The notes beneath the pieces were generated by a model that was not told where the DNA came from, did not search any database, and was given only the letters and a program-made list of their open reading frames with translations. Shown piece by piece: positions 11,151-64,000 of a DNA stretch of 64,000 nt. The translations under genes and the position numbers were made by a program. Source of the stretch: a virus. How positions within the stretch are numbered: the stretch's first letter is position 1; each line of letters begins with the position of its first letter. The stretch lies in the IMG/VR virus record IMGVR_UViG_3300045988_011398; one strand, given 5' to 3'.

Positions 11151-14100
11151 TTAAAGAGCTATACATTTAACTGCTTGGTCTCTCTCTTGTTGTGAGACTG
11201 CATCAAACTTCTCTTGTGTCCATCCCTTATTCAATAGGGATTCTTGTATCTCAGCATCTAATGACTCAAATGATGTAGTATCTTGCTTTTTTGATTCTCT
11301 CATTTGACTTAGTGAAGGTACTTTATAATTACTTGATGAGTACTTTCCTTCATTGATATTTCTGTAATAATCAATCAAGTGGGGTCTCATGTTATTCCAA
11401 TTAGTAACCTTAGCAAATAAGTCTTTGAAGAAATCAAGAATCTTTCTACCAATACCTCTATTCCCTCTGGTCATTACATACTCTCTGAATCCTTCTGCCA
11501 TATCCTCTTCAAGAGAGGCATCATCTTTATTACCATACATTTCCTTAGCCTCAGCCAATAATGCTTGTCTCTCATTATTGTCAAGAAGAAGTTGAAATAC
11601 TGCATGGAAGGCTTCATGGTAAGTAGTACCCTCAGCAGCTATATCAGATAAAGTAATTATGCCATTATTGAATTGTCCCCAAGCCAATGCTCCTTGATTT
11701 CCAACTCTAATAAGACCCTTTATTACTCTTACCCTATCATTATCAGATAATTGAGGAAGGACTTTCTTTATCCAAGCAAGTTCCTTTTCTTGATTCCAAG
11801 TACCTCTTGTCTCATCATCTACCCTTCTCAAACTACCCAAATCCAAGTCATCCTCAAATTCATCATCATTCTCATTTACTGCTTGTTCTGCTTGTGCAGC
11901 CTTAGCTGCCCCAGACTCAGTAGGAGTAGATAATATAGTGGCAGGAGTCTCAGTTTTAGGTGCTTCTACTACAGGAGCAGATGAAGGGTCAAATATGAGA
12001 GTCTTCTCATTTGACATATCTACCACTCTTTGAGGATTACCATTAAGCATCTTCTTGATAGTATCCTTAGCCTGCTGCTCAGTCATGGTCATTGGGTCAT
12101 TCTTGATAAGAGTAATTGAATTACCATTAGGGAATACTGCCATGTATGAATTACTTGCAACATGGGCTTCTTCACCTTGTCTACCAAATCCCTTAGTTAT
12201 AGTAGGTATCTTAGCCATATACACCTCAACACCATTCACTTTACCAATAGGAGTTAGATAACTCTTGTGTAATTTACCATCTCTTACAAAATAACCTACC
12301 TTACTATCTTCAAGACTATATTCAGGAAGCACATCATTAACAGGGTCTTGTGTTTCAAGAGCACTATTAAAGACTGGTACTGTTGAGTTAGTAGGAGTAG
12401 GTTCACTTGCCTTTACAGCACCTACTAATGGTACATTAACAGCAGGATTATAGGTTATCATTATACCCTTCTCCTTTGTTACTCCATCAACAACATCCTT
12501 ATTATAGTTAAGAACAAATGGTAGAACAGCAAGTGTAGTGATAGGAGTATGATATTGAGACTCAAACAGATTCTTATATGCAGACAATTGTAGAGTATAG
12601 TAATCCTTAGCACTCATTCTTTGAGTAGCTGAAGGGCTGGTGAAGTAATTCACTCTATGACCATATCTGTCTGTGAAATCATAGAAGCTATATCTGCTTG
12701 TCTTTACATCATATATCCTGAAGTTTCCATCTGCATCTACTGAAAGAATATCAACCTCACCTGCAACTCTTGTCCCATCAGCATACTTCTGGAATAGTAC
12801 AATGTTATTGGTTAGGAATCTTTCACCTCTTGCCTCAATGTTAGACCTGATTTCTGTAAGTGAGGCAATCAAATCTGTGAAAGCTTTCTCACTCATATTA
12901 TCAGGCTTTACAGGAGTATCATTTGATGTAAAGAAGTTTCTAATCACACTATCCACAGCAGTACCAGCATTTAAGGCTCTTTGTGAGTTAGTGCCAGACA
13001 TACTGTCTCTTATGATGTTTACAATAGTATCTCTACTTCTTGCATCAATCTTACCACTGAATGCACTTAAATCAACCTTCCAATGATTACCTAAGTACTT
13101 CAAGTAGTTATTGTACTGAGTAACATTATCTGCCAATTGAGACAATCTTACTCTTATATCTTTAAGAGCATCAGTTTGCTTCTTTGATTCAATCCAATTA
13201 CTTCCTAATCTGCTGTGTACTCTTTCATACTTATGGTACTGACCATCTTCCTCAAGTATATAATAGAACTCACCATCAGTTCTTGTCTTATCTACTTTCT
13301 TCTGATTCTCAGCTATCTGAGCTATGACTTTCTTACTGTCTCCTACAGTTCTTTCTCTACCAGCAATCTTATCCTTAACCTCTTGAGCTTCTTTACCTGT
13401 CAAGTATTTCTGAGTTCCTCTATCCAATACCTGACCACTTGGTAACAGGATTTTATTATTCCATATCAAAGAACCATTAGTAGCATCACCAAAGTTAGCA
13501 CTTGCCCAAGCTAAATCACTGATTAACTGAGCATTCTTAGGATATACCCTTTGATTGTTACTACCATATATAACACCAGTAGTCAAATCTACTCCATAAG
13601 TAGCACCATCAACAACTACCTTAGTACCTGTAATAACACCCTCAGTCCCACCTACAGGAGTTTCTATCTTCCTTGTAGTATCTGGAGTTACAGATGCAGG
13701 GTTTATAGCCTGATGTAAATTACCTTCCACATCAAAGTAGTCAGTAGTAAACCAGCTACTTATCACTCTTGCATCAGAGATATTTGATGTAAGTACATTA
13801 GAATTGATAAGTACATTGTTATATCCACCTCTATTCAACATACCAAGATTCACCTGAATAGGTAGATTGAAGTCAAGAAGGATTTCACTTATCTCCTTTG
13901 ATACATCCTCAATACTCTTTGAGGCAGGCTCTGTTTGTACCTCTTCATTTCCTGTAATAGAGAATAGAGTGTTTTGGTCCCACTTCTCAGTTAAGAATAC
14001 TGTCTTTACAGTCTCCTTTCTTATTCTCTTGCCATCTTTCTCCTCATATATCTCATTACCTTGAGCATCTCTTTGCACCTTAGTAAATCTAATACCATTA

Positions 14101-17100
14101 CCTGAGTCAGATGTAAACCAGTCAATGTGCAAATCTCCAGTATAAAGATTGGTTGCAAGAGACTTGACTGCATTATTCAAATCATCCTCACTCAATGAAT
14201 TAGCAAGTGCATCAATGGACTCTTGTATATTCTTATATACCTGAGTACTTTGTACTTCAACATCCTCAGGATTAAACTCAGTTTTGTTGAAGTGCTTTAC
14301 TCTTACAGCAGCAGGTGAATACTTACCAGCAGCATTAGGTATAAGAAGATACATTCTACCCTCCTTTTGAGCCATATCTACTGGCTTGATAATAAGACTA
14401 TCATCCAATCTACCATTAGTAGCCAATGTACCATTCTTGATTATACCAAAGATAGGTGCTCTGCCCTCTCCTGATACATTAGGTATATTAGCCAAGCTTC
14501 TTTCCTCTGTGCTATAAGGTATTCTACCTACCATTACTTGTGACACTCTTGTAGTAGGAGTAGCAATAAATCTCTTACTCTTATCACTTCTCTGTGCAAA
14601 CTCAGCTTTTATCTTCTCTTCAAGACCAGCCAGACCCTCATATCTATCTACTGAATAGTCAGATTCATCAAGGCTACCTACAATCTGGTTATTTCTTCTA
14701 TCTACAATAAAGATTGTATGGTCATTGAACTCAGGGTCAATCATAAATCCAAGCTCATCACCTGCCTTCAGATTACCTTCATTCACATAAGTAAATGCAC
14801 CATTATCTCTTAGATAGTTATATAACTCATCAAAGTTTACACCTTTCTCTCTTTCAGCAGCTACTACATTGAATGGTCTAAAATCTCCTTCCTTACTTGC
14901 CTGAATATGCAACTCAGGTATTGAAGGTCTGTAGTAGGGTCTTCTACTCTTTTGCTTGCTGTCAAGTGATTGTGGGGTTTCAACTCTATTATTAGTTTCC
15001 TTATTCTCATCCTTTACTTGAGTTGCAGTTACATTACCTACAGGAGGTTCATAAGTAACCACAGGAAGACCCTCAGTGCTAACTGGAGGAATAGTAGAAG
15101 TACCACTATCACCTGTAGTATCTTTTGTAGGAGCCTTGGGATTTGGCTTGCCCTTTTCTCTTAGTGTCCTATAATCTTGTGAGAATCTATCCTTAAATCT
15201 ATTCTCATTGTTGATTTGATTCATTGCTCTAAGAAGTGCATACTGAGCTTCTTGGAATTTAACAGCATTCTCCTCTGGTGTTAAATTATCATCATACAGA
15301 GCATCTGCATTATCAACATATATAGAGTTAGGATTTGCTATCTCATTTAGATTAGAGGAGTTCTCAAATTGGTCTTGAAGTAGTTTAAGAGCATCTGCCT
15401 TGACAGCAGGACTTTCATCAAGAGAATTAATTGCTCTTTGCACATCTGTGTTGTAGGCATTTACTTCCCTATAATTCTTAGCCATCTCATTACCTTCATC
15501 TTCAAGAGATTTAAGTGTCTCTTCTCTTGTAGCAGCATCCTCTTCCTCATTAAGAGCCTGTCTGAACTCAGATAAGTTAGTGGCTGAGAGTAGTCTGCTC
15601 TTCAGATTATCAGACTTTTTCTTAGCTTCTTCCTTAGCAATGTTCTCAGTAGATGAGACTATATCTTCTTGGAGCTTAGCAGGATTCTCAAGATATTCCT
15701 TTAGCTTAGTATTATATTTACCAGTAGCATCTACTAATTTCACAATATCATCAATCTTCTCATTGAATGCTTGTGCATCATCAGCAGTTACTCCACTAAG
15801 AGGACTCTCTATTACTGACTTGATTCCCTCTACTAACTTGGGGTCACTTGACAAGAGATAAGCAAAAGTCTTATCATCAAGACCTCTTACAGTCTCAAGA
15901 ATAGACATATTCTTCCTTATCTGTCTCTCATTCTTATCAGCAGAATTATACAAATCAGACAATCCTGCATGAGCCTTACCTTCCTCAGTCTTGATTGAAT
16001 TGTACATATCAGCAAGCTGAGACATACTTCCAAGCACTGTACCAATAGTAGGCTTTACTTCACTTGAAAGTTGATTAGCCCTATCTTGCCAATTACCAAT
16101 TTGAGACTTCAACCAAGTCAATTCCTCAAGTTGCTCATCACTTAATTGCTGACCAGTTCTTACATCAATATCATCCTTAATCTTAGTATAGTTAGTGATA
16201 GTATTAAGCATTTCATCTCTTGTCTGAGTCAGCTTATCTATCATTTCCTGCTTTCCCTCAGGAGTACTGTACATAGGATTACCATTCTTATCAATGAATG
16301 GACCAACCTTAGCTTCCTTACCATTTTCATCAGTTATAGTAGAAGTAGTATTTTCTACTATTGATGCAAGGTTCTCATCAGAAGTGTCATAGGCAGAATT
16401 AATGAGAGTAGTTAAATCTTCAAGTTTACCTGCATTATCAAACATTGCAATGTCAGAAATCAACTGAGCATGTTCAGCATTCTTGAACTCAAACTCATCA
16501 TTGTTTTCTACAGCTTGGTTCATATCATTCTGATACTTATTATGTCTGATAAGACCTTGATAGTAATTTATGAACTCAGGAGATTGAACCCTCTCATTCA
16601 TATAATTAGCTATCTCATTCTCTCTATTCATCTTGTCTCTATACTCTCTGAACTCACCAATAGTTCCACCTTCAAGAGTAACAGGAGATTGTAATCTACC
16701 TTCACTACTTCTTATCCCTCTGAACCTTGGCATACCAAGAGCACCAGTAAGAGTACCAATAAAGAACTCCTCCCATGATGAACCATCATTCACTGTCTCA
16801 TTAATACCTTGAGCAAAGGATTTCATCCAACTCAGTGTCTCCTGCTCAGCCTGTGAGTCTATCTTGGCTTTGTAGAAGTTATTTACATCATCCTCATAGT
16901 AATTACCAAATATTCTACTTGCTGCACCTTGTGAAATTTCCTCAAGACCCTCAGAAAGAGGACTCAAAGTAGCTCTTGCAATTCCCTTACCTGTAGTTCT
17001 TCCTGTAGTATATTCTCCTGCCTTACCAACTATGTTGGTTGCTTTTCTTGCAGTCTTGAAGCCATTGGCATACATTCTACCAAACTGAATAAGGTTAGAT

Positions 17101-54128: not shown

Positions 54129-54146
54129 AGCTTAACTAAAATTAGT

Positions 54147-54214
54147 TGCGGAGGTAGGAATTGAACCTACGGAGTCCAGCTTATGAGACTGGATTGAATA
54201 CCAATTCTCCCCGC
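54147..54214 (-). tRNA. non-canonical tRNA-like gene, anticodon CAT
   Basis: AC arm ccagt-ctCATaa-gctgg and T arm gtagg-ttcaatt-cctac. The acceptor pairs over only 6 bp, the D loop is 5 nt, and the whole gene is 68 nt. Confidence 0.55.
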
Positions 54215-54223
54215 GATGTTTAG

Positions 54224-54295
54224 TGCAGATAGACAGACTCGAACTGTCACATTGACATTGGAAGTGTCACATACTGACCTTTATACTATACCTGC
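54224..54295 (-). tRNA. tRNA-Gly(TCC)
   Basis: Acceptor gcaggta/tatctgc, AC arm tgaca-ctTCCaa-tgtca, T arm gacag-ttcgagt-ctgtc. Confidence 0.85.
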
Positions 54296-54300
54296 ATTTG

Positions 54301-54373
54301 AGTAGATAACTGGATTTGAACCAGCCCCTTGACATTGGCAATGTCATATGCTAACCACTAACACCATACCTAC
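54301..54373 (-). tRNA. tRNA-Gly(GCC)
   Basis: Acceptor gtaggta/tatctac, AC arm tgaca-ttGCCaa-tgtca, T arm gctgg-ttcaaat-ccagt. Confidence 0.85.
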
Positions 54374-54552
54374 ATAAAGCCAAAGATTTGCATCTGGTAC
54401 TTTGGCATTGCAAGGTTTCACCTTAACTTGCACCCTCCTTCACATTCCACCCATATCCAGCTTGTTATAGTGTCAGCTCACTTTGGGGTTTCCATTGGAC
54501 TAAGGAGTGTTAGCCTCTCACTGAATGGAATACAGCTTTTACTAACTTGTTG

Positions 54553-54624
54553 AGGCTTCTGTCAGAATCGAACTGACATTACTGGGTTACAAAGCCAGTT
54601 TCCTAACCATTGAAAGAAGAAGCC
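54553..54624 (-). tRNA. tRNA-Thr(TGT)
   Basis: Acceptor ggcttct/agaagcc, D arm tttc/ggaa, AC loop ttTGTaa (31-39 is a C-C mismatch), T arm gtcag-ttcgatt-ctgac. Confidence 0.8.
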
Positions 54625-54628
54625 ATTG

Positions 54629-54712
54629 TAGCTCAAGAGGGATTTGAACCCTCAATCCCTAAAGGGCGAGGGATTTTAAGTCCCTTGTGTATGCCAGTTC
54701 CACCATTGAGCC
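54629..54712 (-). tRNA. tRNA-Leu(TAA), long variable arm
   Basis: Acceptor ggctcaa/ttgagct, AC arm aggga-ctTAAaa-tccct, T arm gaggg-ttcaaat-ccctc. 84 nt. Confidence 0.85.
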
Positions 54713-54720
54713 ATTATATA

Positions 54721-55173
54721 TTAATAAGGTCTAATATCACAAAGTTCAAATAGATACTTATACTTATTAATATTCTGAATGAATGTCTCACACTCTGAAG
54801 TAATACCTTTATATACAGTCTCCTGTGGTATCTTATCATAGAATACTACAGTAGCACCTCTTACTTCATTTATGAAGTCTATAGCATTAAGAGTATCACT
54901 TGGAGTACCTTTTATAACATTAGGTTGCATCTTACCAAGTATTCCCATGTATCCTTCTGCAAGACTGTCTTGATAGTCTGAAAGTATGCTCAGAAATTCA
55001 TCAAGATATACATGTATATTCTTCTTAGGTGCTGCCCAATGCAAGTTTTTACACTTTGTTTTCCACCCTTCAAGTCTATTCAAGAAGCTAATAAAGAACT
55101 CGGAAGGATTCATATTAGGGTCTTCTTGTTTCATTGTTTCAAGTGGTGTCAATAACATATCATCACCATACAT
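54721..55173 (-). CDS. Dps/ferritin-like four-helix-bundle protein (150 aa) embedded in the tRNA array
   Basis: WKTKCKNLHWAAPKKNIHVYLDEFLSILSDYQDSLAEGYMGILG parallels E. coli Dps [44 protein letters not shown] (HW, H, D/E and DxxxAE positions). It has its own promoter at 55199-55230. Confidence 0.55.
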   Translation of the reverse strand: MYGDDMLLTPLETMKQEDPNMNPSEFFISFLNRLEGWKTKCKNLHWAAPKKNIHVYLDEFLSILSDYQDSLAEGYMGILGKMQPNVIKGTPSDTLNAIDFINEVRGATVVFYDKIPQETVYKGITSECETFIQNINKYKYLFELCDIRPY

Positions 55174-55198
55174 AAGCTTTATTGTTTATTTGATAATG

Positions 55199-55230
55199 CA
55201 AAGGTAAGTATTTTATTTGGAATATGCAAA
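55199..55230 (-). promoter_or_regulatory. Bacteroidota-type promoter (TTTG-N20-TACCTTTG)
   Basis: Minus-strand read: atttgcatat..ttacttacctttgca. Lies between tRNA-Leu(TAG) and the Dps-like ORF. Confidence 0.75.
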
Positions 55231-55259
55231 TAAAATGCTAATTATTTTTCAATTATTTG

Positions 55260-55348
55260 TACCCTCTGTGAGACTCGAACTCACACACTACTATTACTTC
55301 ATCCCAGTTTCTAAGACTGGTGTGTCTACCAAATTCCACCAAGAGGGC
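55260..55348 (-). tRNA. tRNA-Leu(TAG), long variable arm
   Basis: Acceptor gccctct/agagggt, AC arm ccagt-ctTAGaa-actgg, T arm gtgag-ttcgagt-ctcac. 89 nt. Confidence 0.85.
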
Positions 55349-55354
55349 ATATTG

Positions 55355-55440
55355 TGCTCCTGAAGAGAGTCGAACTCTTAATCTCTATTTCAAGCCCTGA
55401 CTTTTGAGGTCAGTGTGTATTCCAATTCCACCACAGGAGC
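55355..55440 (-). tRNA. tRNA-Leu(CAA), long variable arm
   Basis: Acceptor gctcctg/caggagc, AC arm ctgac-ctCAAaa-gtcag, T arm aagag-ttcgact-ctctt. Confidence 0.85.
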
Positions 55441-55446
55441 ATTATG

Positions 55447-55522
55447 TGGGGACTCTGGGAATTGAACCACAAGCCTACAGTTTTTCAGACTGCCGTGCAA
55501 TAACCACCTACACCAAGTCTCC
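55447..55522 (-). tRNA. tRNA-Phe(GAA), imperfect T stem
   Basis: AC arm gcagt-ctGAAaa-actgt and D arm gtgt/gcac. The acceptor has one A-C mismatch and the T stem has only 3 of 5 pairs. Confidence 0.6.
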
Positions 55523-55590
55523 ATATTGACTTATTTGCATCTCTACCTGCATCACCTTCCATAAGTCAAGGACAAAAATTTCTATTGAAG

Positions 55591-55676
55591 TGGGAGTGGT
55601 AGGATTCGGACCTACTGAGTTTCTAATGTGCTGGTTTTACAGACCAGTGCCCATCCACCATCTGAGCAGCACCCCC
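55591..55676 (-). tRNA. tRNA-Tyr(GTA), long variable region
   Basis: Acceptor gggggtg/cactccc, D arm gctc/gggc, AC arm ctggt-ctGTAaa-accag, T arm gtagg-tccgaat-cctac. 86 nt. Confidence 0.75.
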
Positions 55677-55684
55677 ATAATAAG

Positions 55685-55757
55685 TTCCCTCATAAGGAAT
55701 CGAACCTTACTCTCAGGATTAAAAGTCCAGAGCATCCACCAACAATGCTTTGAGGGA
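55685..55757 (-). tRNA. tRNA-Lys(TTT)
   Basis: Acceptor tccctca/tgaggga, D arm gcat/atgc, AC loop ctTTTaa (one U-U pair in the stem), T arm taagg-ttcgatt-cctta. Confidence 0.8.
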
Positions 55758-55762
55758 ATATG

Positions 55763-55836
55763 TGCTCCCACAAGGACTCGAACCTTGAGTCCCCTGTTTA
55801 AGAGACAGGTGCTTTAACCAATTCAGCTATAGGAGC
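55763..55836 (-). tRNA. tRNA-Lys(CTT)
   Basis: Acceptor gctccta/tgggagc, AC arm cctgt-ctCTTaa-acagg, T arm caagg-ttcgagt-ccttg. Confidence 0.85.
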
Positions 55837-55843
55837 TTATAAG

Positions 55844-55918
55844 ACTTGGAGGTGGGATTTGAACCCACGAATCATCAGATTTGCAGTCTGTGCCCTTAGA
55901 CCACTCAGGTACTCCAAG
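55844..55918 (-). tRNA. tRNA-Cys(GCA)
   Basis: Acceptor cttggag/ctccaag is perfect, AC loop ctGCAaa on a 4-bp stem, T arm gtggg-ttcaaat-cccac. The D arm is irregular. Confidence 0.7.
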
Positions 55919-55922
55919 ATAG

Positions 55923-55994
55923 TACTGGTATAAGGACTTGAACCTTCATCTTGAGTGTATAAGACTCCTGCACTAACCATTATGCTATACCAGT
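55923..55994 (-). tRNA. tRNA-Ile(TAT)
   Basis: Acceptor actggta/taccagt is perfect, AC loop ctTATac, T loop ttcaagt. Confidence 0.7.
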
Positions 55995-56001
55995 ATATTG
56001 G

Positions 56002-56073
56002 GGTGTCTGATGGGACTTGAACCCACACAATTTGGAGCCACAATCCAAAGCTCTACCATTAAGCTACAGACAC
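56002..56073 (-). tRNA. tRNA-His(GTG); CCA encoded (to 55999), no encoded G-1
   Basis: Acceptor gtgtctg/cagacac, discriminator C, then cca. AC arm ttgga-ttGTGgc-tccaa, D arm gctt/gagc. Confidence 0.8.
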
Positions 56074-56075
56074 AG

Positions 56076-56147
56076 TTCTGATGGATAGACTCGAACTATC
56101 AACTACTGCCTTATGAGAGCAGCTTTCTACCATTGAAATACATCAGA
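56076..56147 (-). tRNA. tRNA with CAT anticodon (elongator Met or lysidine-type Ile)
   Basis: Acceptor tctgatg/catcaga, D arm tttc/gaaa, AC arm ctgct-ctCATaa-ggcag, T arm gatag-ttcgagt-ctatc. Confidence 0.8.
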
Positions 56148-56154
56148 ATATAAG

Positions 56155-56227
56155 TGGGCAAGTAAGGACTCGAACCTTCATTACTTGAATATCAGTCAAG
56201 CTTCCTGACCAATTAGAAGACATGCCC
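56155..56227 (-). tRNA. tRNA-Ile(GAT)
   Basis: Acceptor gggcatg/cttgccc (one U-U pair), AC arm cttga-ctGATat-tcaag, T loop ttcgagt. Confidence 0.8.
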
Positions 56228-56234
56228 ATTTTAG

Positions 56235-56307
56235 CTAAGGTGGCAGGACTTGAACCCACAACTGCTGGTTTTGGAGACCAGTGTTCTACCAATTGAACTA
56301 CACCCTA
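56235..56307 (-). tRNA. tRNA-Trp(CCA)
   Basis: Acceptor tagggtg/cacctta, D arm gttc/gaac, AC arm ctggt-ctCCAaa-accag, T arm gtggg-ttcaagt-cctgc. Confidence 0.85.
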
Positions 56308-56313
56308 ATTTAG

Positions 56314-56386
56314 TTGCAGGTAGTGGATTTGCACCACTGTTCCCCCCATTATGAGTGGGGCAAGATAACTACTTCTCCAACCTGCG
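56314..56386 (-). tRNA. tRNA-Met(CAT), initiator-like
   Basis: Acceptor cgcaggt/acctgca gives a C1-A72 mismatch. GC-rich AC stem cccca-ctCATaa-tgggg, T arm agtgg-tgcaaat-ccact. Confidence 0.7.
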
Positions 56387-56499
56387 GAAGAAACATCAAA
56401 TCATGTGATTATGTCTCCTTATTGCACTCAGAGACTTTTCAGAAATGATGGCATCAAGTATTGCAAGCTACTTGACTGAACTTCTTGCAAAAGTTCTTG

Positions 56500-56571
56500 C
56501 GGGAAGTGTAGGACTCGAACCTACAGCCTGAGGATTAACAGTCCCCTGCTCTACCATTGAGCTAACAACCC
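56500..56571 (-). tRNA. tRNA-Asn(GTT), two U-U pairs in the acceptor
   Basis: Acceptor gggttgt/acttccc, D arm gctc/gagc, AC arm gggga-ctGTTaa-tcctc, T arm gtagg-ttcgagt-cctac. Confidence 0.7.
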
Positions 56572-56579
56572 ATTATTAG

Positions 56580-56653
56580 TTGCTCCTATTAGAATCGAAC
56601 TAATGACCTTCTGTGTGTAAAACAGACATTCTGAACCACTGAACTAAGGAGCA
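56580..56653 (-). tRNA. tRNA-Val(TAC)
   Basis: Acceptor tgctcct/aggagca, AC arm tctgt-ttTACac-acaga, T arm attag-ttcgatt-ctaat. Confidence 0.85.
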
Positions 56654-56739
56654 ATGAAGGCAGTTTCTTTAATCTCTAACTGCCCAAAAGAGTGTCCAAA
56701 GCAAAAGCTCTAACATTATGAAAACATGAAAACAATGAG

Positions 56740-56813
56740 TGGAGAATGAGGGACTTGAACCCTAAACTCTTCTTTGCAAAAGAAGTGTGTTAGCCAATTA
56801 CACCACAAACCCC
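56740..56813 (-). tRNA. tRNA-Ala(TGC) with G3-U70
   Basis: Acceptor ggggttt/attctcc (G3-U70 present, two U-U pairs), AC arm cttct-ttTGCaa-agaag, T loop ttcaagt. Confidence 0.75.
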
Positions 56814-56818
56814 ATTAG

Positions 56819-56894
56819 TAGAGTAGACAAGACTCGAACTTGCAATATCACTGCATCCCAAATGCAGGGGGCTAACCAATTACCCTACTACTCT
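56819..56894 (-). tRNA. tRNA-Pro(TGG)
   Basis: Acceptor agagtag/ctactct, D arm gggt/gccc, AC arm ctgca-ttTGGga-tgcag, T arm gcaag-ttcgagt-cttgt. Confidence 0.8.
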
Positions 56895-56901
56895 ATATTT
56901 G

Positions 56902-56986
56902 CGGAGAGCATTGTACTCGAAACAAATGCCTTTTACAGCACACATTACTTAGCAGGTAAGTCCACTGCCTCAGTGGTTTACTCTCC
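56902..56986 (-). tRNA. tRNA-Ser(GCT), long variable arm
   Basis: Acceptor ggagagt/gctctcc, AC loop ctGCTaa, T loop ttcgagt. 85 nt. Confidence 0.75.
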
Positions 56987-57011
56987 ATTAATCAGCCTTT
57001 CAAAGAACATG

Positions 57012-62064: not shown

Positions 62065-62526
62065 ATGGGACAGAAATGGCAATATTACGGTTTATTTCTT
62101 AATAAAGAGGCAAAAATACAATTATTTACAATGGTAGTAGCGAATTTTTTGAATAATATTAAGAACCCCAACAAAGTATGTTTGGACCATTGTACTTTAT
62201 TGCATAAATCTCAATTAGACAATGATAATACCATATTCCTTAATAGATGTATAAAATCCAGACTTGATTATCTATTGGAGAATAATATAATCAGAGCTAA
62301 ATTGATGATTACCTCAGTAGGTATATCTGAAAAAGCTATGGCTTTCAAAGTTATAATTCTTAATAATAATGAGGGAATATATGACTATGAAATCTGTGCT
62401 AACGAGATACCACATATTACTATTTGCACATTTAATGGTGGTAAGCCAGTAGATAGTAATAATATTGTTAAGTGGCATGATTTAGATGAGCCTATAGAGA
62501 TTGAAACAACACTAAAAAGAGTATAA
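62065..62526 (+). CDS. 2H phosphoesterase superfamily protein (153 aa), Acb1-like or LigT-like
   Basis: Two H-h-T-h motifs: LDHCTLL (H42/T44) and IPHITIC (H117/T119). The N-terminal strand YYGLFL resembles the first strand of LigT-type enzymes. Confidence 0.6.
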   Translation: MGQKWQYYGLFLNKEAKIQLFTMVVANFLNNIKNPNKVCLDHCTLLHKSQLDNDNTIFLNRCIKSRLDYLLENNIIRAKLMITSVGISEKAMAFKVIILNNNEGIYDYEICANEIPHITICTFNGGKPVDSNNIVKWHDLDEPIEIETTLKRV

Positions 62527-62527
62527 A

Positions 62528-62854
62528 ATGAAAATAACTTCACTACAACAATTAAAAGACTGGAATAATCAATATGCTGTTGGTTCAACTTTTAGAAAAG
62601 AACATGATGAAGCTAAATTTCCTATCTTATTAGAATGGTTTCTTGATTGGTTCTTTGAAGAAGCTTTATTAGATATAGAAGTAGCAAGAGAGGCTTTTAA
62701 TGAATATGTAAATTTTGCCTATATATGTACAGAGCTTCCACCAGAAGCTTCTCTTGGAAGGTGCTTACATAACCTTAATTATTGGTATGATAGAGCATCC
62801 TATTATAATTCAAGAGCAAAACAATTTAAGAAATTTAAGGCAGAGTGTTTATAA
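62528..62854 (+). CDS. uncharacterised protein (108 aa)
   Basis: ATG start 1 nt after the upstream stop. Trp/Phe-rich. Confidence 0.45.
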   Translation: MKITSLQQLKDWNNQYAVGSTFRKEHDEAKFPILLEWFLDWFFEEALLDIEVAREAFNEYVNFAYICTELPPEASLGRCLHNLNYWYDRASYYNSRAKQFKKFKAECL

Positions 62855-62874
62855 ATTAATAATTTGATATACAA

Positions 62875-63408
62875 ATGAACAAGAAACTAAGATTGCTTGT
62901 TACGACAGATTGTCCTAACAAGTGCCCTATGTGCTGCAATAATCAGTTTGATTTCAGCAAACTGCCTGTAGTAGATAGGTGGAATTATGATGAAATCATG
63001 ATTACTGGAGGTGAACCTTTGTTGTTTACAGATACTTTAGTAGAGGTATTAATTTCCATAAAAGAATTAAGTTCTCTCACTGGAAACCATCCTAAACTAT
63101 TTATTTATACTGCTGATTGCACTAACAAGATTATTAAAGTCTTACCCCATGTTGATGGTATAGTACTTACTCCACACAAGCAATCAGATATTGTACACTT
63201 TATTGAACTAAATAAGTTCATACTTGTACATAAGACCCAATTTTATATCCGAGATACATCACTTAGATTAAATCTTTTTCCTGACATGAAAGCCCTCTTA
63301 CCTAAAGATATTGATTTATCATTATGGGAAGTAAAAGATATGGAGTGGATAGAAAACTGTCCAGTTCCAGAGGGTGAGGACTTCAGGAGAATAGCTAATT
63401 TATGGTAA
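62875..63408 (+). CDS. small radical-SAM protein (177 aa), activase/QueE-sized
   Basis: CPNKCPMC is a CX3CX2C motif (nt 62911-62934). ITGGEPLL is the glycine-rich SAM motif. Confidence 0.6.
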   Translation: MNKKLRLLVTTDCPNKCPMCCNNQFDFSKLPVVDRWNYDEIMITGGEPLLFTDTLVEVLISIKELSSLTGNHPKLFIYTADCTNKIIKVLPHVDGIVLTPHKQSDIVHFIELNKFILVHKTQFYIRDTSLRLNLFPDMKALLPKDIDLSLWEVKDMEWIENCPVPEGEDFRRIANLW

Positions 63409-63734
63409 TAATTCAAAACAGAAATACAATGAGAAAATGGACAGAAGAGGATAAGAATATCCTCCTTGAGGAAATCTCAAATGACCCAAGTAACTTACAG
63501 AATGTCTTCAGAAGAACTGCTGAAAGAATAGGCAGGACTAAAGCCGCAGTTGCAACATACTGGTATCAGGTACTTGCTCCTAAGAACAGAAATAACAGGA
63601 GTAATACTGCATTCATGTCCTACAGTAAAGGCAGCATAAACAGCAATAGGAAAATATCCAGAGAGAATACTCAACAGCCTGTTGCAGTAAGAAGGAGCAA
63701 ATGGAGAAGAATACTTGATATAATCTTTGAATAA
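63402..63734 (+). CDS. Myb/SANT-like DNA-binding protein (110 aa; alternative start 63429)
   Basis: KWTEEDKNILLEEI...RTAERIGRTKAAVATYWYQVL fits the W-x(n)-W/Y Myb repeat pattern. Confidence 0.5.
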   Translation: MVIIQNRNTMRKWTEEDKNILLEEISNDPSNLQNVFRRTAERIGRTKAAVATYWYQVLAPKNRNNRSNTAFMSYSKGSINSNRKISRENTQQPVAVRRSKWRRILDIIFE

Positions 63735-64000
63735 GATTGGATTGGGGCATGATTTGGTTTTGATTGCTGATTATCAGGTAAGAGAACATGCAGAGACTGA
63801 TGGAGAGACATCAAACAATTAACTGGCAATACTTCTTATAGAGTTGCTGCCTAAACATAGGCTGAGCAGCACTTGCTTGGAAACAGAAAGGTGCAATAGT
63901 GGTGGATTTTCCTTATTTATCTGACCCTGACAAGTTAAATAAGGTGGTGGAATGGTATGTCAATCCGGGCAACCCCAGTAGATAACCAACTGCACATCAA

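Follow-up and report, generated by a model that had tools for sequence, protein, structure and literature searches.

The DNA considered here is a stretch of 64,000 nucleotides (nt), which we call the window, from IMG/VR virus record IMGVR_UViG_3300045988_011398. Near its end, on the plus strand, the list of open reading frames (ORFs) of the window has an intact, ATG-initiated ORF at positions 62065-62526, which encodes a protein of 153 amino acids (aa). A preliminary description, made from the letters alone, took this protein for a 2H phosphoesterase because of two H-x-T motifs, and offered two roles: a nuclease comparable to Acb1 of phage T4, which destroys cyclic oligonucleotide signals of host defence, or an enzyme of the LigT/2'-5' RNA ligase type, which acts on 2',3'-cyclic-phosphate ends of RNA. 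We find that the protein is a minimal stand-alone member of another branch of the 2H superfamily, the branch of the cyclic phosphodiesterase (CPD) domain of the tRNA ligase Trl1 and of vertebrate CNPase. The gene and the residues that matter for this assignment are the following.

62065..62526 (stop codon included), plus strand: 2H phosphoesterase gene, predicted Trl1-CPD/CNPase-type cyclic phosphodiesterase (ORF, Pfam family PF08302, 532 homologues, AlphaFold2 model, Foldseek).
62083..62100, plus strand: strand beta1, Y7-Y8-G9-L10-F11-L12, with a Tyr predicted to contact the ribose; strand E7-12 of the model; G9, L10 and F11 invariant.
62188..62196, plus strand: proximal catalytic motif H42-C-T44; H42 and T44 invariant; strand E42-47 of the model.
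62203..62205, plus strand: H47 (H1+5), predicted to stack on the terminal nucleobase; invariant, spaced as Trl1 His687 and CNPase Phe235.
62401..62403, plus strand: N113 (H2-4), predicted water-bridged phosphate contact; invariant, spaced as Asn763 of the Candida Trl1 CPD.
62413..62421, plus strand: distal catalytic motif H117-I-T119; invariant; strand E117-122 of the model.
62446..62460, plus strand: P128-V129-D-S131-N132, putative Pro-Val base clamp (H2+11/+12) with an Asn at H2+15; V129, S131 and N132 invariant.

In this notation H1 and H2 are the first and second catalytic histidines, signed numbers are distances from them along the chain, and invariance refers to an alignment, A1, of 34 homologues that have 42-78% identity to the 153-aa query. 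The two motifs are the only H-x-T matches in the protein, and they are not a chance feature, because a search of a collection of 5.8 billion proteins yields 532 homologues at E <= 1e-3, and because H42, T44, H117 and T119 do not vary in A1. The same is true of G9, L10, F11, H47, G86, S88, F94, N113, P116, G126, V129, S131, N132 and W137. A profile search extends the family to 1001 cluster representatives at 50% identity, nearly all of them stand-alone proteins of 130-160 aa, and 220 of 227 stand-alone members keep both motifs in the form HxT/S. The reading frame and its motifs are thus as first described.

Among Pfam families, the protein matches only PF08302 (tRNA_lig_CPD), with an E-value of 5.7e-9 and 36.3 bits for a curated cut-off of 23; residues 26-140 cover profile positions 105-221 of 250. 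All other Pfam families are silent even at E <= 10, including the Acb1 family (PF23474), the LigT_PEase and 2_5_RNA_ligase2 models (PF02834 and PF13563, with no such match in NCBIfam either) and CPDase (PF07823). The LigT/2'-5' RNA ligase label is therefore not supported. PHROGs, NCBIfam and PADLOC assign no family to the protein, sequence and profile searches of the PDB return no match, and most homologues bear a precomputed PF08302 label; in database records the name is 'hypothetical protein'.

An AlphaFold2 model built on A1 has a mean predicted local distance difference test (pLDDT) of 92.2 and a predicted template modelling score (pTM) of 0.86, and places the motifs on beta strands 42-47 and 117-122. 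The model supports a 2H phosphoesterase fold, that is, a pseudo-two-fold alpha+beta arrangement with motif-bearing strands, and its top matches by Foldseek, both in the PDB and in a library of viral structures, are exclusively 2H phosphoesterases. Consequently, the fold proposed from the motifs is borne out jointly by the PF08302 match, the conservation, the model (pLDDT 92) and Foldseek. The first PDB match is 6u05, the Trl1 KIN-CPD of Candida albicans (E 1.8e-5, query TM-score, TMq, 0.67), and the next 45 or so are the catalytic domains of mouse, human and rat CNPase and goldfish RICH, with TMq 0.5-0.62; the best 50 PDB matches contain no Acb1 entry. In the library of predicted viral structures, giant-virus proteins without names lead, the Acb1 of Erwinia phage RisingSun comes at rank 15 (E 0.033, TM 0.43-0.45), and 'LigT-like' phage protein models reach only E 0.07-0.3. 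The comparison with Acb1 and LigT structures suggested earlier thus confirms the 2H fold, but Acb1 and the viral 'LigT-like' models are weak matches, and the best ones are the Trl1 CPD and CNPase. At the level of Acb1 we also find the 2H domains of toroviruses, coronaviruses and rotaviruses, at E 0.03-0.2 only, and on this ground the viral/AKAP7-type 2',5'-phosphodiesterase branch (NS2, VP3) was rejected.

The residues around the motifs narrow the assignment. Beyond its motifs 682-HVT-684 and 767-HIT-769, the clade of the Trl1 CPD has five constituents of its own, Tyr647, His687, Gln678, Asn763 and Asn782 (PMC7145591, Banerjee et al. 2019): Tyr647, on beta1, and His687 (H1+5) are proposed to pack on the terminal nucleoside, and Gln678 (H1-4), Asn763 (H2-4) and Asn782 (H2+15) contact the phosphate through bridging waters (PMC7145591). 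The phage protein has four of the five at identical spacing, namely Y7/Y8, H47, N113 and N132, the tyrosines being nearly invariant in A1 and the other three invariant. In the 182 family members with a D-H-x-T/S motif the H1+5 residue is aromatic (165 H, 13 F, 4 Y); P128 is nearly invariant in A1, and 173 family members have 'PV' at H2+11/12. The protein thus resembles the Trl1 CPD by a significant profile match, by the best structural match, by two H-x-T motifs on antiparallel strands and by the spacing of these residues. It differs in being a stand-alone protein of 153 aa, whereas the Trl1 CPD is a domain of about 230 aa in a trifunctional ligase-kinase-CPD enzyme; in being borne by a virus of Bacteroidales with no kinase or ligase partner found; and in lacking equivalents of Gln678 and Glu680.

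The same positions can be read on CNPase, for which we used the sequence of the mouse catalytic domain from the PDB, its numbering checked against the mutants named in PDB entries. In beta1, L-Y168-F-G-W-F-L of CNPase corresponds to Q-Y7-Y-G-L-F-L of the phage protein; around the first motif, H230-C-T232...F235 corresponds to H42-C-T44...H47; and around the second, H309-V-T311-x8-P320-V321 corresponds to H117-I-T119-x8-P128-V129. Y7, H47, P128 and V129 thus stand at the positions of Y168, F235, P320 and V321, within the shared patterns Y-[FY]-G-x-F-L in beta1, H-C-T, [ST]-x-K in the hairpin and H-h-T-h-x7-P-V. In CNPase the nucleobase is sandwiched by F235 and V321, the ribose is contacted by Y168, and the mutations F235A/L and Y168A cripple the enzyme (PMC4643303). 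The program hhalign independently gives the same register for the hairpin and the second motif, despite a weak pairwise E of 0.022; the family profile gives E 0.046 with T4 Acb1, and both values are too weak for discrimination.

CNPase is the second-best structural group (2xmi, 2ydd), but it shows no significant sequence similarity to the phage protein, which is about 60 residues shorter, has no equivalent of R307, is neutral rather than basic, and lacks both the polynucleotide kinase-like N-terminal domain and the membrane anchor. Because the local patterns, their spacing and their conservation in the family are the same, the protein, as read from the aligned sequences, has a pared-down Trl1-CPD/CNPase active site, fit for one terminal nucleoside with a cyclic phosphate.

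The characterised members of this branch turn 2',3'-cyclic phosphates into 2'-phosphates (PMC4643303, PMC5434554, PMC7145591). Since the phage protein shares clade-specific residues with the Trl1 CPD and CNPase, the predicted reaction is the metal-independent hydrolysis of a terminal 2',3'-cyclic phosphate to a 2'-phosphate, and we hold that its chemistry is probably that of a cyclic phosphodiesterase. His42 and His117 would be the general acid and base, as their homology suggests; Thr44 and Thr119 would hold the phosphate, with Asn113 and Asn132 acting through bound waters; Tyr7/8, His47 and Pro128-Val129 would clamp the terminal nucleoside; and hydrolysis without a metal would leave a 2'-phosphate and a free 3'-OH. 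Of the two roles first offered, an enzyme for 2',3'-cyclic-phosphate RNA ends is therefore the better supported, but by way of the Trl1-CPD/CNPase branch, which had not been named. E. coli ThpR/LigT belongs to the same superfamily, has the same predicted reaction on RNA ends with a 2',3'-cyclic phosphate (>p), and packs two aromatics on the terminal nucleoside; it differs from the phage protein in the Pfam and viral-library comparisons given above, and its catalytic Arg130 has no evident counterpart there.

The other role first offered is that of an Acb1-like counter-defence nuclease, which would cleave the cyclic oligonucleotide signals of the cyclic oligonucleotide-based anti-phage signalling system (CBASS) or of type III CRISPR (cyclic oligoadenylates), or else 2'-5'-linked messengers, and so block abortive infection. 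Acb1 acts on 3'3'-cGAMP and cA3, and its C-terminal lid closes over the ligand. Represented by T4 gp57B, by PF23474 and by structures from Erwinia phage FBB1, it has the 2H fold and is a stand-alone phage accessory protein of about 150 aa, so that size and motif layout nearly coincide: 153 and 152 aa for the window protein and T4 Acb1, with motifs at 42/117 and 44/113. Its catalysis likewise passes through a cyclic-phosphate intermediate (PMC9117128). However, PF23474, which gives 202.7 bits to our positive control, gp57B from the T4 genome, does not recognise the window protein; nor does PADLOC; the structural match is the weak one at rank 15; BLASTP and hhalign align only the P-H-I-T segment of T4 Acb1; and outside the catalytic motifs, what is conserved is the Trl1-CPD/CNPase mononucleoside clamp. 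The products differ as well: Acb1 breaks 3'-5' bonds in cyclic oligonucleotides, so that a 3'-phosphate remains (PMC9117128), whereas the Trl1/CNPase branch opens cyclic phosphates to 2'-phosphates. With its Pfam model silent and its structures ranking low, membership in the Acb1 family was rejected: by profile and alignment, the 153-aa protein is not an Acb1. A role of the Acb1 type is then the weaker proposal and, with the genomic points in its favour given below, we consider it unlikely.

We now turn to the genome in which the gene is found. Minus-strand structural ORFs of the window match crAss-type Pfam families (major capsid, muzzle, tail ring 1-4, cargo proteins and tail hub A), and exactly the same 153-aa protein is encoded on two human-gut metagenome contigs of about 101 kb. 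These crAss-specific families and contig matches indicate that the window derives from a Crassvirales genome. On the minus strand, 27 tRNA genes for 19 amino acids form an array at 54145-57493, and a plus-strand block that begins near 59.9 kb holds the 2H gene. The 'full tRNA set' announced earlier is nearly that: the array, a tRNA-Arg(tct) and an irregular element serve 19 amino acids, but no tRNA-Ser is called. Between tRNA-Pro and tRNA-Asp, where related phages place tRNA-Ser(gct), the array has an unassigned gap of 204 nt (56895-57098). Around the 2H gene the plus-strand block contains the following features.

59928-60004, plus strand: irregular tRNA-like element (ARAGORN).
61727..61801, plus strand: tRNA-Arg(tct), 264 nt upstream of the 2H gene (ARAGORN, Rfam).
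61838..62062, plus strand: 74-aa ORF, which ends 2 nt ahead of the 2H ATG; in 4 other loci a homologue immediately precedes the 2H gene.
62528..63734, plus strand: tightly packed ORFs, namely a 108-aa ORF, a 177-aa radical-SAM-like ORF (62875-63408) and a Myb/helix-turn-helix-like ORF (63402/63429-63734).
63744..64000, plus strand: 5' part of a phage transfer-messenger RNA (tmRNA), truncated by the window end; full copy at locus L004, 11680-12005.

The packing is head to tail, the 108-aa ORF starting 1 nt past the 2H stop codon. On the plus strand between 59500 and 64000 there are no terminator-like sites, and scans for sigma-70 promoters stay at chance level, which is uninformative for a phage of Bacteroidales. 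The tmRNA lies 1.2 kb downstream of the 2H gene and matches the annotated SsrA of phage cr106_1 at 91.7%; its full copy scores 66 bits with Rfam RF00023, and ARAGORN reads its tag as GNTSYRVAA. Beyond the window, L004 continues with a 469-aa TROVE/Ro60 protein (12709-14118) and an RNA stretch (14153-14646) made of a tRNA-Lys(ttt), a 130-nt stretch that, apart from an insertion, fits the tRNA model over its full length, and a further stretch that is tRNA-like in part; together these lie 2.2-4.6 kb past the 2H gene. The tRNA-like stretches after TROVE match no Rfam Y-RNA family. The TROVE/Ro60 protein is 74-77% identical among crAss001-like phages, and so much better conserved than the 2H gene. 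Further along the same block, 5-8 kb downstream of the 2H gene, a phosphoribosyltransferase-like gene (Pribosyltran) is followed by a NAMPT gene (L004 15793-18813). In phage crAss001 the corresponding right-end block, TROVE included, is an early module transcribed 0-10 min post infection (PMC8375218). By this synteny, the 2H gene belongs to an early plus-strand accessory block of a crAss-like phage of about 101 kb.

Several features of this neighbourhood deserve a description of their own. The tRNA-like element at 59928-60004 has conserved acceptor, D and T arms and an irregular, lineage-variable anticodon arm, in which ARAGORN reads 4-base or odd anticodons; it has counterparts at L010 8181-8269, L020 7560-7650, L044 854-944 and others, is annotated tRNA-OTHER in crAss001, and in most crAss-like loci holds its position about 2 kb upstream of the 2H slot. 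Instead of decoding, this element may serve the phage Ro60/TROVE protein as a Y-RNA-like partner. The ORF at 60894-61664 (plus strand), of 242-256 aa, is recognised by neither Pfam nor PHROGs; homologues of it occur in 30 fetched loci, unrelated jumbo phages and a 174-kb phage included, usually within a few kb of the 2H gene. The 177-aa ORF has a CxxxCxxC motif (C13-P-N-K-C17-P-M-C20), weak Radical_SAM matches and a match to phrog_31524, is unusually small for a radical S-adenosylmethionine protein, and has a homologue near the 2H gene of one jumbo-phage locus (L042). In several related phages the order is different, with the tmRNA immediately ahead of the 2H gene. Finally, in P0114, a homologue of 185 aa, the N-terminal 45 or so residues of the small upstream ORF (compare L001 5769-5996) are fused in frame to the 2H domain, either by a deletion artefact or as a hint that the two products act jointly.

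The distribution of the gene was followed in 36 loci from IMG/VR, five annotated phage records and seven metagenome contigs. It is found in crAss001-like and Kolpuevirus-like Crassvirales, in Bacteroides phages DAC19/20/22, in Lak megaphages and in several phage contigs of 115-350 kb. In about two-thirds of 43 loci a tRNA gene, usually tRNA-Arg, or a tmRNA lies on the same strand within 1.5 kb upstream, and in an unrelated jumbo lineage (L030-L032) the gene sits between a tRNA-Met, 23 nt upstream, and a tRNA-Leu, 0.5 kb downstream. A TROVE gene follows at 0.3-2.3 kb in 19 loci, all of one crAss001-like lineage, two of the 19 being copies of the present phage. As conserved partners, the 74-aa ORF upstream and the 108-aa ORF downstream were rejected, neither being conserved across lineages.

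The slot itself is polymorphic. In crAss001 and several PhiCrAssBcn isolates, whose flanks are 94-99% identical to those of PhiCrAssBcn1, a carrier of the 2H gene, it holds an HNH endonuclease and a 100-aa membrane protein.

L044 2411-3604 (crAss001), compared with L001 5769-6405 and L006 9223-10462: polymorphic 2H slot.

The closest homologue of the window protein, at 78% identity, is encoded on a 174-kb contig of an unrelated phage, directly behind an HNH/I-HmuI-like gene, whereas the crAss001-like copies are only about 44% identical. This difference points to horizontal movement: the 2H gene is accessory and apparently mobile, and its neighbours suggest that it moves in association with homing endonucleases. 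Genes that are early, dispensable, accessory and apparently mobile are typical of anti-defence, and this is a point for an Acb1-like nuclease, as is the presence of the NAMPT and Pribosyltran genes in the same block. Those two genes suggest that the phage salvages or reconstitutes NAD+, which is a known counter to NAD-depleting defences.

If the protein acts on cyclic phosphates, the question becomes which ones. The substrates we favour are the 2',3'-cyclic-phosphate ends that host ribonucleases of the metal-independent kind, anticodon nucleases and HEPN-type defence RNases for example, leave on tRNA, tmRNA or other RNA, and the outcome would be that such ends are unblocked or re-marked during infection. 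The near-full phage tRNA set and the adjoining tRNA, tmRNA and Ro60 homologue make a setting that fits coping with RNA-cleaving defences, and a role as helper against host RNA-cutting defences is, by analogy, plausible. The context that supports it consists of the tRNA-Arg, the tmRNA, TROVE/Ro60 and the tRNA-like RNAs around the gene, and of a homologue, P0242, in which the 2H domain is joined to a Pol-beta-type nucleotidyltransferase (PF01909, 27.6 bits), the only fusion with Pfam significance; in two others (P0154, P0216) a zinc ribbon precedes the 2H domain. That some defences cleave tRNA, and that phage tRNA loci serve as counter-defence, is documented (for example PMC13096335).

Several observations weigh against such a substrate, or against the assignment behind it. 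A Trl1-type tRNA ligase pathway is not found: among the 46 window ORFs and in the annotated flanks there is neither a fused nor a neighbouring 5'-OH kinase or ATP-dependent RNA ligase. Pfam detects no RNA ligase, polynucleotide kinase, RtcB or Tpt1 domain in those 46 ORFs, a scan outside of which lie about 29 kb of the phage genome, and precomputed annotations show none in the flanks, of about 10 kb, of some 45 related loci; the earlier remark that the window has no partner ligase or kinase thus holds at the level of Pfam. Because none of these enzymes turned up, we see no way in which an RNA with a 2'-phosphate end would be sealed, and such ends are not known to be substrates of RtcB-type host ligases. 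The proximity of tRNA genes mostly reflects the shared ancestry of crAss-like phages, none being nearby in at least five other lineages, and it does not discriminate between roles because the T4 Acb1 gene also lies near a tRNA cluster, at 1.4 kb. The gene is dispensable, with an HNH endonuclease in its slot in crAss001. The protein is near neutral, with an isoelectric point (pI) of 6.9 for a family median of 6.65, unlike the basic CNPase domain (pI 9.1). In the active site, Gln678 (H1-4) and Glu680 (H1-2) of Trl1 are replaced by V38 and L40, which are not conserved, and function within the 2H fold shifts between branches. Taking all this together, we regard the combined statement, a cyclic phosphodiesterase that acts on RNA or nucleotide >p ends during early infection, as about evenly balanced between right and wrong.

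Some of these observations would be natural for an enzyme of free nucleotides, one that hydrolyses the 2',3'-cyclic nucleoside monophosphates (2',3'-cNMPs) left by RNase I/T2-type RNA decay, for salvage into phage DNA or for the removal of a stress signal. The conserved clamp is the mononucleotide site of CNPase, which acts on 2',3'-cNMPs and on 2',3'-cNADP (PMC4643303); the protein, near neutral, has no obvious basic surface for RNA; its gene stands alone, with no RNA-sealing partner found; and 2',3'-cNMPs are physiological effectors in E. coli (PMC8765455). A further point comes from a domain of about 250 aa, domain X, which follows the 2H domain in homologues P0264 and P0267 and stands between a phrog_2072 domain and the 2H domain in P0249: as a stand-alone gene it is found in jumbo phages between thymidine kinase/dUTPase and RecA-like genes, a replication module and not one of RNA repair. 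However, a 2'-NMP is not a standard salvage intermediate and would require a 2'-nucleotidase; invariant residues outside the clamp (K127, S131, W137, G86-S88-K90) suggest a larger ligand; and the neighbours here are tRNA, tmRNA and Ro60 genes, not genes of nucleotide metabolism. We consider this explanation possible but doubtful.

Domain X also bears on a third explanation, that the protein hydrolyses a cyclic phosphate derived from NAD: ADP-ribose 1'',2''-cyclic phosphate (Appr>p), the product of Tpt1, as do yeast Cpd1 and plant CPDase, or a related ADP-ribose-derived molecule. The 2H superfamily offers a precedent in the Appr>p phosphodiesterase of Arabidopsis, a structural neighbour of the Trl1 CPD, and the NAMPT and Pribosyltran genes share the block. 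A first search gave 2 homologues of domain X and a profile search 34; with the resulting 35 sequences, hhalign aligns X to the NAD+ lobe of Tpt1/KptA (LYHGT...GL...RxHVHLS...VWL..VP) over 82 columns at a probability of 63% and a pairwise E of 7e-5, and with 3 sequences the probability is 3%. This likeness is not significant in Pfam or PHROGs, where domain X has no match; the AlphaFold2 model of the fusion protein failed, its pLDDT of 47 making it unusable; neither the window nor the fetched 2H loci encode a homologue of X; and Pfam CPDase, as said, does not match the 2H protein. We keep the likeness to Tpt1 as an open lead, suggestive only, that is not counted as evidence, and think it very unlikely that the enzyme serves NAD-derived substrates.

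Returning to RNA ends as substrates, a bolder conjecture can be made for the block as a whole. In Salmonella, tRNA halves that end in 2',3'>p are the proposed inducer signal of the repair operon rsr-yrlBA-rtcBA (PMC7790460, PMC10159003), and the early block could be a virus-encoded RNA-damage module analogous to that operon, composed of the tRNA-Arg, the 2H enzyme, the tmRNA, Ro60/TROVE and the tRNA-like RNAs with irregular anticodon arms. The cyclic phosphodiesterase would turn the >p ends of tRNA halves, as made by host defence RNases, into 2'-phosphate ones. This could erase the mark by which regulators or effectors of the CARF type sense a 'damaged tRNA', or else the fragments could be channelled to a Ro60/Y-RNA-guided turnover, with the phage tRNA array providing replacements. 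We judge this conjecture distinctly unlikely. If it is true, viruses would here for the first time turn eukaryote-type (Trl1/CNPase) CPD chemistry to counter-defence, and the widespread, unexplained Tpt1 enzymes of bacteria would have a natural supply of RNA 2'-phosphate ends.

The kind of enzyme and the Pfam family of the 153-aa protein were already known. What is new is a large phage-borne, stand-alone clade of the eukaryotic tRNA-ligase/CNPase enzyme type, which is not Acb1, and whose gene, mobile and dispensable, lies in an RNA-rich early block; we found no description of this 2H family in the searchable literature on crAss-like or other Bacteroidales phages. With about 1000 clusters at 50% identity, the family is large, phage-borne, accessory and mobile, and it calls for caution: small phage 2H proteins are not all Acb1. 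Crass-like phages are more abundant in the human gut than any other viruses, and for the majority of their early genes no function has been assigned; one of these genes now gains a specific, predicted biochemical identity, that of a minimal Trl1/CNPase-type 2',3'-cyclic phosphodiesterase. Should it hydrolyse only free 2',3'-cNMPs, it would be an ordinary auxiliary metabolic gene. Should its substrates be RNA ends produced by host ribonucleases, the known phage strategy of bringing replacement tRNAs would gain a step of RNA end processing, and there is a modest chance that this is a new RNA-based step of counter-defence.

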